A DNA stretch of 64,000 nt, taken from contig CAVYKB010000019.1 in NCBI GenBank assembly GCA_963768975.1, positions 198,688 to 262,687 of the forward strand. Direction: 5' to 3'. Positions 9,258 through 10,889 of the stretch are shown here, piece after piece; position 1 is the stretch's first letter, and the number at the start of each line of letters is the position of its first letter. The translations under genes were made by a program, and so were the position numbers. This stretch comes from an uncultured Acidimicrobiia bacterium (lineage in GTDB: Bacteria > Actinomycetota > Acidimicrobiia > Acidimicrobiales > AC-14). Under the pieces are notes generated by a model. It did not search any database. It had not been told where the DNA came from and saw nothing but the letters and a program-made list of their open reading frames with translations.

Positions 9258-10889
9258 TTAGAGCCAGCGCCGCCGGTTCGGCCAGGGTGACCGGCGGACC
9301 GGCGGGCGGTTCCAACCCAGGCCGACGAGCACGAACCCGGCCACCATCAGCACGAACGCCAGCCCCGCCGGCGTGGCGAGGTTCCTCCCGGTGCGAGAGA
9401 GCACCGGGGTGGCCCGCTGGGCGACGACGGCGGGCGCGGTGACCACAAGCGTGGTCTCTCCGAACAACGTTCCGCCTACCACGCTCACCCGGACGGTGTG
9501 CAAGCCGGGTGAGGTGCCCAGCGGCACTGTGACCACCATCCGAAAGCGCCCCGAGGCGTCGGCGACGGTCGTGCCGAGCCGCACCGGGTCGCTGAACAGG
9601 TCGGTGGCCAGCGGGCTGGCGGGCGGGAACCCGCCGCCGGTCAGGGTGAAGCTTTCCCCGGGGGCTGCCTGCTGGCGGTCGGAGGCAACCGTCGGCCCGC
9701 CGGCGATGGTTGTTGAGGTCGAGGTCGGGGTCGGAACGTTCGTCGACGCCGAGGTGGTGGACGTCGAGGTCGGCAAGGTCGACGTCGACGTCGAGGGGGT
9801 CGACGTCGAGGTGGTCGAGCTGGTGGTCGACGTCGAGGAGCTGGTCGTCGATGTCGGCGCCGCCGTCGACGACGTCGAGCTCGACGTCGATGTGGAGCTC
9901 GATGACGAGGTCGAGGTCGGCGCTGTCGTGGACGTCGTGGACGACGAGGACGTCGATGTGGTCGAGGTCGACGATGTCGACGAGGTCGACGACGTGGAAC
10001 TGGTTGTCGAGGAGCTGGTGGTGCCCGTCGGCACGGTGCTCGACGTGCTCGTCGTGCTCGACGTGGTGGTGGAGGAGGTGCTCGACGAGGTGGTCGGCAA
10101 CGACGAGGTCGTGGTCGGCAGTGTCGTGCTCGTGCTCGTGCTCGTGCTCGTGCTCGTCGTCGAGGTCGAGGTCGAGGTCGTCGAGGTCGTCGAGGTGGTG
10201 GATGTCGTCGAGGTGGTCGAGGTGGCCGACGTCCCGGTGATGACGACCTGGTTGCCCTCGCCGCACCCCACGGTGACCGGGAGGTTGTTGGCGTCGCCGG
10301 GGTACCGGACGGTCCAGCGGTAGGTGCCGGGAGCGGTGGGGACGAATTCGCTCGACGTGGCCACGCCGTTGGCGTCGACGACGTTGGTGGAGGAGAACAC
10401 CTCGGTGGTGCAGGCGGCGTCGCTGAACAGCCGGAACGTCACGCTTCCTGTCGGGGGGAGCAGCCCGAGGAAGGTGAGCGTGTCCCGGACCGGGGTGCCG
10501 ACCGGCCCGCCCGCCGACGGGGTGGCCACGACGGAAGGCGCCCGCCGCTCGATCACGATGGTGAAGGTCTGGCACGCCGGCCCGACCTGGCTGTTGCCGG
10601 CGCACACCGTCGTCGGCCCGAAGGTGCCGGCCTGGCTGGGGGTGCCCACCAGGATGCCCGACGGCGAGAAGTTGAGGCCGGGAGGGATGGCGCCGGCGGT
10701 CACGGCGTAGGTGGCGTTCTCGATGGTGCTGGCGAACTGGTGAGCGTAGGAAAGGCCCACGACCCCGCCGACCGGTGGGTTGCTGGTGATGGCCGGAGCG
10801 GCCTGGGCCCCGGCGGAGACCACGCCCAGCGCCCCCAGTCCGAGCAGCGCCGCCACCGCAAGCGCCCAGCGTCGACCGCCCAGCGTCAC
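9258..10889 (-). CDS. secreted cell-surface protein with a signal peptide, a He_PIG-type Ig-like domain, a second Ig-like domain, a roughly 180-aa Ser/Thr-rich stalk and C-terminal LSRTG plus a TM helix plus a basic tail
   Basis: N-terminus MTLGGRRWALAVAALLGLGALGVVSAGAQA. Motif PPGLNFSPSGILVGTPSQAGTF. C-terminus VLSRTGRNLATPAGLAFVLMVAGFVLVGLGWNRPPVRR. Confidence 0.8.
   Translation of the reverse strand: MTLGGRRWALAVAALLGLGALGVVSAGAQAAPAITSNPPVGGVVGLSYAHQFASTIENATYAVTAGAIPPGLNFSPSGILVGTPSQAGTFGPTTVCAGNSQVGPACQTFTIVIERRAPSVVATPSAGGPVGTPVRDTLTFLGLLPPTGSVTFRLFSDAACTTEVFSSTNVVDANGVATSSEFVPTAPGTYRWTVRYPGDANNLPVTVGCGEGNQVVITGTSATSTTSTTSTTSTTSTTSTSTSTTSTSTSTSTSTTLPTTTSSLPTTSSSTSSTTTSSTTSTSSTVPTGTTSSSTTSSTSSTSSTSSTSTTSTSSSSTTSTTAPTSTSSSSSTSTSSSTSSTAAPTSTTSSSTSTTSSTTSTSTPSTSTSTLPTSTSTTSASTNVPTPTSTSTTIAGGPTVASDRQQAAPGESFTLTGGGFPPASPLATDLFSDPVRLGTTVADASGRFRMVVTVPLGTSPGLHTVRVSVVGGTLFGETTLVVTAPAVVAQRATPVLSRTGRNLATPAGLAFVLMVAGFVLVGLGWNRPPVRRSPWPNRRRWL
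9705..10247 (-). repeat. low-complexity tandem codon repeats (TST/TSS units) encoding the Ser/Thr-rich linker
   Basis: Plus-strand periodic gtcgaggtcg / gtcgacgtcg units. It is coding low complexity, not a CRISPR array. Confidence 0.7.

Follow-up and report, generated by a model that had tools for sequence, protein, structure and literature searches.

A candidate sortase-type sorting signal with an L-x-R-T-G motif on a predicted surface protein of an uncultured Acidimicrobiales-like bacterium

In GC-rich actinobacteria such as Corynebacterium and Streptomyces, class E provides the housekeeping sortase (PMC8225981). SrtE1, an enzyme of this class, cleaves both LAETG and LPETG, and modelling has led to the proposal that the second position of the motif is read via its backbone amide (PMC5148588). 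Serine at this position is known from Trueperella pyogenes, which has a sortase E and carries LSXTG on 10 of its 25 predicted wall proteins; the authors of that study stated that evidence of sortase E acting on LSXTG was lacking (PMC7350218). Besides class E, several class F sortases with unknown substrates are common in Actinomycetes (PMC13251363). Here we describe a gene located at positions 9258-10889 on the minus strand of a 64-kb stretch of DNA from an uncultured Acidimicrobiia bacterium (contig CAVYKB010000019.1; the whole stretch is referred to as the window), whose product, the LSRTG protein, ends in LSRTG, a membrane segment and a basic tail. A second surface protein gene of the window, gene 1, carries a sister signal with LVRTG. 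The window has a GC content of about 71% and the homologues of the LSRTG protein that carry a source name are labelled Acidimicrobiales bacterium, so that the host DNA can be described as Acidimicrobiales-like. Annotation is nearly absent for the cell-surface proteins of the Acidimicrobiales, an abundant and largely uncultured group.

The C-terminus of the LSRTG protein is probably a sortase-type wall-sorting signal in which LSRTG stands in place of LPXTG or LAXTG, a member of an L-x-R-T-G subtype for which class E is the likeliest sortase class. The original prediction had described a secreted surface protein ending in LSRTG, a 9-residue spacer, a hydrophobic helix and an Arg-rich tail, and each of these elements was recovered. 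The C-terminus it quoted, ATPVLSRTGRNLATPAGLAFVLMVAGFVLVGLGWNRPPVRRSPWPNRRRWL, matched our translation exactly up to the last sense codon at 9261-9263. LSRTG lies 47 residues from the C-terminus, with L, T and G in register and Ser in place of Pro. In the AlphaFold2 model the motif lies in a disordered stretch (predicted local distance difference test score, pLDDT, <50) just outside the predicted membrane helix (model residues 108-129), which begins three residues past the motif Gly; the strongly hydrophobic core is reached after 8-9 residues, in agreement with the proposed spacer. The membrane segment has a mean hydropathy of 2.57 over 17 residues and contains an invariant Gly (G121). The tail NRPPVRRSPWPNRRRWL has 5 Arg in 17 residues, and the Arg cluster is conserved. 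The overall layout, with the signal peptide, the Ig-like domains, the Ser/Thr stalk and the disordered motif beside the helix, is that of a secreted surface protein whose C-terminal signal is tripartite.

By itself, the pentapeptide proves little, since a six-frame translation of the window contained 11 L..TG motifs within 70 codons of a stop. Among them, a hydropathy screen flagged LSRTG alone as standing ahead of a hydrophobic helix and basic tail; gene 1 fell outside both screens, as its motif lies further from its stop. Using the last 147 aa, homologues were found of which 38 were aligned with the window sequence (mean column identity 47%). Source names were given for few of these, and those named were Acidimicrobiales metagenome-assembled genomes (MAGs). 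In the 39 sequences, L, R, T and G of the motif showed zero entropy and Ser was present in 38 (0.17 bit), the remaining sequence having LTRTG; the 13 columns preceding the motif had entropies of 2.0-2.6 bits. In addition, the window and two syntenic loci, L001 and L007, use different synonymous codons for the Leu, Ser and Gly of the motif. The motif is therefore not a product of chance, because it is invariant amid variable flanks and is encoded by synonymously differing codons. Conservation was also seen for the last residues of the protein (window 9261-9281, minus strand), which read RRRW[LP] in the family of the LSRTG protein and RRRR.PWD in the relatives P0211, P0228, P0249, P0269, and P0286.

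Gene 1 provided a second view of the signal. LVRTG is retained in P0222 (1754 aa), a full-length relative of its product, as are the membrane segment and the motifs of the tail. At the position of the motif, homologues of gene 1 with a visible C-terminus carry LVRTG (five sequences), LPRTG (two), LARTG, LSRTG or LATTG (one each), which places Arg at the third position in 9 of 10. The two families share an extended consensus, G[AGS][DE]xxGPARLA...G..LV, including the invariant helix Gly, and also a Big_3_5-like passenger module, for which the second Ig-like domain of the LSRTG protein and the corresponding module of gene 1 are 42% identical (E=7e-19). Both signals had been proposed to define a candidate L-[VS]-R-T-G recognition motif. 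The kinship of the two genes stood, as they share the signal and the extended consensus, whereas the motif class itself had to be widened to L-[P/V/S/A]-R-T-G; because the cognate sortase was not found, "recognition" is meant here in a presumptive sense. The notion that, of the two, the LSRTG protein more closely resembles a classical sorting signal agrees with its 17-aa Arg-rich tail, compared to a conserved cytoplasmic tail of 153 aa in gene 1. A DUF11 subgroup of the gene 1 homologues (P0044, P0047, P0053, P0055, P0062, P0064, P0071) ends in ...C..P.LP.FTG right at the stop and has no membrane segment, which looks like a different C-terminal motif.

A genome scan with the alignment of the C-terminal domain that precedes the signal returned two distant loci (L005 and L006) and no Acidimicrobiales genome. 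In Blastococcus saxobsidens (L005), a secreted protein of 574 aa closes with the homologous domain plus LANTG, a membrane segment and RRR, and the next gene encodes a sortase with TLTTCHP that is named class E sortase by NCBI. In an Actinomycetes MAG, a 207-aa protein has the homologous domain and, at its end, LPYTG with a membrane segment and basic tail. Homology thus links the C-terminal domain to the wall-proximal domain of these proteins, and since they carry LANTG and LPYTG there, LSRTG occupies the position of canonical LAXTG (class E) or LPXTG signals.

The spread of the signal was followed with a signal-only profile (49 positions, 26 sequences from both families), with which 1.84 billion representative proteins were searched at E<=0.001. 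The search yielded 121 protein clusters. A tally by script of 114 related signals gave 39 LPRTG, 19 LVRTG, 15 LSRTG, and 10 LARTG, single cases of LTRTG, LGRTG, LQRTG, IARTG, and VARTG, and eight motifs without Arg; about 16 further entries of the tally were not cleanly parsed, and by eye most of them have L-x-R-T-G. Many of the full-length matches possess N-terminal signal peptides, and their passenger domains (DUF7507/DUF11, Big_3_5, SdrD_B, Cadherin-like, CshA, SpaA, Rib, HtaA) are typical of known sortase substrates. Absence of the motif from other surface proteins had been named as the observation that would speak against it; the opposite was found. When 115 of the matching sequences were compared with NCBIfam (E<=0.01), 54 matched LAXTG_small_WW, 40 Microco_LAVTG, and 25 LPXTG_anchor. 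The profile search shows that an L-x-R-T-G subtype exists and is diverse. LPRTG was commoner than LSRTG or LVRTG although the profile favours Ser and, as the commonest form, it indicates that the motif class grades into canonical LPXTG and LAXTG. The subtype, in Acidimicrobiales-type genomes, is best read as having a permissive second position (P, V, S, or A) and a fixed Arg at the third.

A side result of these searches was an HtaA haem-binding protein with LSRTG (L013 10001-11806; also in L014 and L015), which is encoded inside a haem-uptake operon; in L013 this operon also includes genes for a second HtaA protein, a substrate-binding protein, a FecCD permease, an ATPase, and a haem oxygenase. 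Metagenome DNA was in addition scanned with the pattern L[SVAF]RTGx[DE]. Of the 120 matches listed (L016-L135), 112 were chance matches by the hydropathy screen, notably LARTGGDEF of GGDEF diguanylate cyclases, and inspection recognized genuine sorting signals in two of the 120 loci (L022 and L028), both with LARTG.

Compared to described systems, the nearest curated signal models are of class E types (LAETG, LAVTG). With the LAXTG substrates of class E, which are represented by Streptomyces chaplins and proteins of Corynebacterium and Actinomyces and by the models NF041528 (strep_LAETG) and NF058582 (Microco_LAVTG), the signals share a high-GC actinobacterial host, a second position other than proline, [AGS][DE] after TG, an RRR tail and a membrane helix that contains Gly. 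They differ in having Ser (LSRTG protein) or Val (gene 1) instead of Ala at the second position, a fixed Arg at the normally free third position, and longer conserved tails. The canonical LPXTG anchor (TIGR01167 and PF00746, Gram_pos_anchor) has the same tripartite layout and motif-to-helix distance, and 25 of the 115 related sequences match TIGR01167 and 14 match PF00746, whereas the window protein has no Pro and is detected by neither model. The LSXTG proteins of T. pyogenes are likewise actinobacterial and have Ser at the second position, but they belong to another order (Actinomycetales) and have no fixed Arg. Secreted proteins of the PEP-CTERM/exosortase, PGF-CTERM/archaeosortase, and GlyGly-CTERM/rhombosortase systems also end in a short motif with a membrane helix and basic tail, but their motifs and enzymes are not the same, and at E<=1 neither the whole window protein nor its last 63 residues matched an NCBIfam model of these types. 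In the literature, we found no paper with "LSRTG" in a sortase context, none describing sortases of Acidimicrobiia, and none describing an L-x-R-T-G signal; the latter would be a variation on known sorting signals, not a new mechanism.

The domain layout of the LSRTG protein and of gene 1 is given in Table 1. The signal peptide has a basic n-region, a hydrophobic core and an AQA-AP junction, and is conserved in L001 and L007. A scan of the window protein against Pfam gave no match, and a faint precomputed Big_3_5 Pfam match was present for the relative P0249. The C-terminal domain was modelled by AlphaFold2 with the homologue alignment as a sandwich of seven strands with block-mean pLDDT values of 89-98 across model residues 1-90. 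A fold search with this domain returned generic Ig/macroglobulin-like sandwich matches only, its homologues match NF058592 (GxPGS_dom) below the cut-off, and a sequence search of solved structures with the N-terminal region and the C-terminal domain gave no significant match. The linker varies in length between metagenome copies from JGI (L001-L004) with the frame being kept, resulting in open reading frames (ORFs) of 617, 631, 634, and 645 codons; these differences among samples represent a repeat-number polymorphism of the stalk.

Table 1. Features of the gene for the LSRTG protein and of gene 1 in the window.
Feature	Position	Strand	Description and basis
Complete coding sequence, surface protein	9258..10889	-	GTG start, 543 aa, stop 9258-9260; GC content at third codon positions (GC3) 0.92
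Sec-type signal peptide, residues 1-30	10800..10889	-	VTLGGRRWALAVAALLGLGALGVVSAGAQA followed by AP; sequence inspection, presumed cleavage between AQA and AP (AxA rule)
Two immunoglobulin (Ig)-like passenger domains, residues 31-213	10251..10799	-	Second domain a Big_3_5-like module
Ser/Thr-rich linker/stalk, residues 214-396	9702..10250	-	183 aa, 85% S+T; composition
C-terminal seven-strand beta-sandwich (GxPGS-type Ig-like), residues 397-485	9435..9701	-	AlphaFold2, homology
Variable disordered segment, residues 486-496	9402..9434	-	Column entropy 2.0-2.6 bits; pLDDT <50
LSRTG, residues 497-501	9387..9401	-	Presumed sortase cleavage site between T and G; conservation
RNL spacer and transmembrane helix, residues 502-526	9312..9386	-	ATPAGLAFVLMVAGFVLVGLGW, invariant Gly; AlphaFold2, hydropathy
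Cytoplasmic basic tail, residues 527-543	9261..9311	-	NRPPVRRSPWPNRRRWL, conserved RRS.WP.RRRW ending; sequence, alignment
Antisense "shadow" ORF, not a gene	9262..10323	+	VEVVDVV... translation; third codon positions coincide with sense gene
Gene 1 (5′ end cut), DUF7507/DUF11 and Big_3_5 repeat surface protein	1..1992	+	
Gene 1 LVRTG	1447-1461	+	
Gene 1 membrane segment	1480-1530	+	
Gene 1 conserved cytoplasmic tail	1531-1989	+	153 aa, Gly/Pro-rich

The antisense ORF at 9262-10323 on the plus strand has an equally high GC3, and its interpretation as a real gene was ruled out by the uninterrupted sense frame in relatives: in all five syntenic loci (L001-L004 and L007), a single unbroken sense frame joins the signal peptide to the membrane anchor. 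The public gene calls in these loci place an antisense ORF over the linker (L001 5756-7021 and L007 6805-7800) and call the sense strand for the last 112-167 aa only. Because the gene callers chose the antisense ORF over the linker, the homologues in the databases are short "hypothetical protein" fragments. Antisense calling across the Ser/Thr linker is a recurrent error, which recognition of L-x-R-T-G as a wall-sorting signal would correct.

By analogy with established sortases, the protein would be exported by the Sec system via its N-terminal signal peptide and would then stay in the membrane through its C-terminal helix and Arg-rich tail, with LSRTG placed, according to the structure prediction, in a flexible segment about three residues outside the bilayer. 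A membrane sortase would cut between Thr and Gly and pass the protein to a peptidoglycan precursor. After this transfer, the Ser/Thr stalk would span the wall and the Ig-like domains would be displayed. The likeliest enzyme for these steps would be the housekeeping class E sortase of Actinobacteria, in view of its housekeeping role, the dual cleavage and the proposed backbone reading by SrtE1, and the presence of LSXTG in the sortase E-bearing T. pyogenes. If the second position is read via a hydrogen bond of the backbone amide, as proposed, Ser or Val should be tolerated in place of Ala.

Several findings weigh against a sortase-type sorting signal read by class E. A six-frame search of the 64-kb window with a TLxTC-type pattern and a class E sortase hidden Markov model (HMM), for which 40 of the 120 listed matches to the Blastococcus sortase were used, revealed no sortase, and HMM and pattern scans of 21 related loci (L001-L015, L022, L028, and L136-L138) revealed no sortase of the lineage; because of this outcome, we infer both the enzyme and its class. 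The only sortase in L001-L015 was that of Blastococcus in L005. No sortase adjoined the relatives on the 12 contigs viewed, and the 120 matches listed in a protein search with the Blastococcus sortase were all Blastococcus-like or Modestobacter-like, with no Acidimicrobiales sortase among them. With respect to the curated sorting-signal models (TIGR01167, PF00746, NF041528, and NF058582 were compared), the window protein gave no match to those of Pfam and NCBIfam even at E<=10. P0001, a homologue with 87% identity, reached 15.7 bits at a cut-off of 27 on NF058582, and P0277, which has LSRTG, reached 26.6 at a cut-off of 30 on NF041528 and 15.0 at a cut-off of 15.9 on TIGR01167, so that all these scores stayed below the cut-offs. 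To our knowledge, the fixed Arg has no counterpart in the described LPXTG and LAXTG specificities, and the profile search cannot measure how general this Arg is, because the profile rewards it by about 7-9 bits over other residues; an estimate of the Arg frequency from this search was rejected for the same reason. The conserved endings of the tails amount to more than the plain cluster of charges that classical sorting signals have. Furthermore, the tails of the gene 1 family are about 150-290 aa long and contain conserved motifs (DLDWDGWV or WDEWV-like, GGLDAAALDAA, and a terminal RRSRR in P0222, P0206, P0218, and P0223), and such a long conserved tail is unusual for a sortase substrate. During the sortase search, a weak HMM match at 51729-52424 on the minus strand was discarded as being antisense to the cytidylate kinase gene.

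The fixed Arg, the conserved tail ends and the gene 1 tails keep two alternatives alive, of which the processing by another or dedicated sortase is the more likely one. This enzyme might be a class F sortase or belong to an undescribed subclass with an Arg-specific pocket, and L-x-R-T-G would then mark a separate sorting pathway. Such a specialization would account for an Arg found in 39 of 39 members of the family of the LSRTG protein and in 9 of 10 gene 1 homologues and replaced by N or Y outside the lineage, and for an extended consensus that reaches beyond the pentapeptide in both families; Actinomycetes, moreover, often have several class F sortases for which substrates have yet to be assigned (PMC13251363). 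We regard a dedicated sortase as rather unlikely, since nothing ties the signal to a particular enzyme, class E types are the nearest among the curated models, and the only sortase adjoining a homologue is of class E. An elaboration of this idea, in which L-x-R-T-G, the extended consensus, the invariant helix Gly and the RRRW or RRRR.PWD endings mark a distinct Acidimicrobiales pathway with an Arg-pocket sortase, and in which the leftover conserved tail of about 150-290 aa in the gene 1 family has a function of its own, e.g., reporting surface-protein processing inward, is speculative and in our estimation improbable.

The other alternative is that the protein is not cleaved at all and the helix serves as a permanent anchor of a type I membrane protein, LSRTG being a juxtamembrane hinge, the site of another protease or a contact to a partner. 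This would fit with the lack of a sortase nearby, with the conservation of the tails past the charge cluster (RRS.WP.RRRW; RRRR.PWD) and with the long conserved cytoplasmic tails of the gene 1 family, which suggest a function that needs a retained membrane segment. However, homologues, one of which adjoins a sortase, interchangeably carry canonical LPXTG and LAXTG motifs where LSRTG stands, and the exact L..TG register, the distance to the helix and the passenger domains are those of sorting signals and sortase substrates. We therefore give permanent anchoring only a small chance. A chance pentapeptide or a wrong-strand artefact in this high-GC, repeat-rich region is suggested by the abundance of L..TG near stop codons and by the overlapping antisense ORF with its high GC3 that was picked by gene callers, but an explanation of this type is close to negligible given the invariance of the motif in 39 sequences despite synonymous codon changes, the sense frame that joins signal peptide and anchor in six loci, the in-frame indels of the linker and the confident folding of the C-terminal domain. 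A sortase-type sorting signal, with class E as the likeliest enzyme, remains our preferred reading.

If this reading is true, recognition of L-x-R-T-G would enable surface proteins of the lineage to be found systematically, e.g., giant DUF11 adhesin-like proteins or the haem receptor. It would also mean that, at two motif positions, actinobacterial sortases accept more residues than known so far, a point of relevance to sortase-based protein ligation. The understanding of the mechanism is unchanged, and the value of the finding lies in the correction of the annotation.

The neighbours of the gene for the LSRTG protein are metabolic, with threonine dehydratase, alpha-amylase and STAS genes on one side and rhodanese, 4HBT and other genes on the other side. 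They are syntenic in relatives and functionally unrelated to the LSRTG protein, which some related loci encode and others lack. In L011 (18517-20404), its gene is missing together with the threonine dehydratase gene, and in L012 (10001-11758) the slot of the gene is empty and a gene for a 585-aa relative with LTRTG is located between the Exo_endo_phos and 4HBT genes. Elsewhere in the window, the gene at 60843-61601 (minus strand) encodes a YkuD L,D-transpeptidase with a PG_binding_1 domain, a cell-wall enzyme unrelated to sorting. A gene for an extracytoplasmic function (ECF)-type sigma factor at 53045-53554 (plus strand) is followed by two genes on the same strand, 53520-54479 and 55069-55761, whose products have similar C-terminal ends (...Y[ST]V.ATW..PG....T..F) and no convincing family match. 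These two proteins may be anti-sigma factors or secreted partners.

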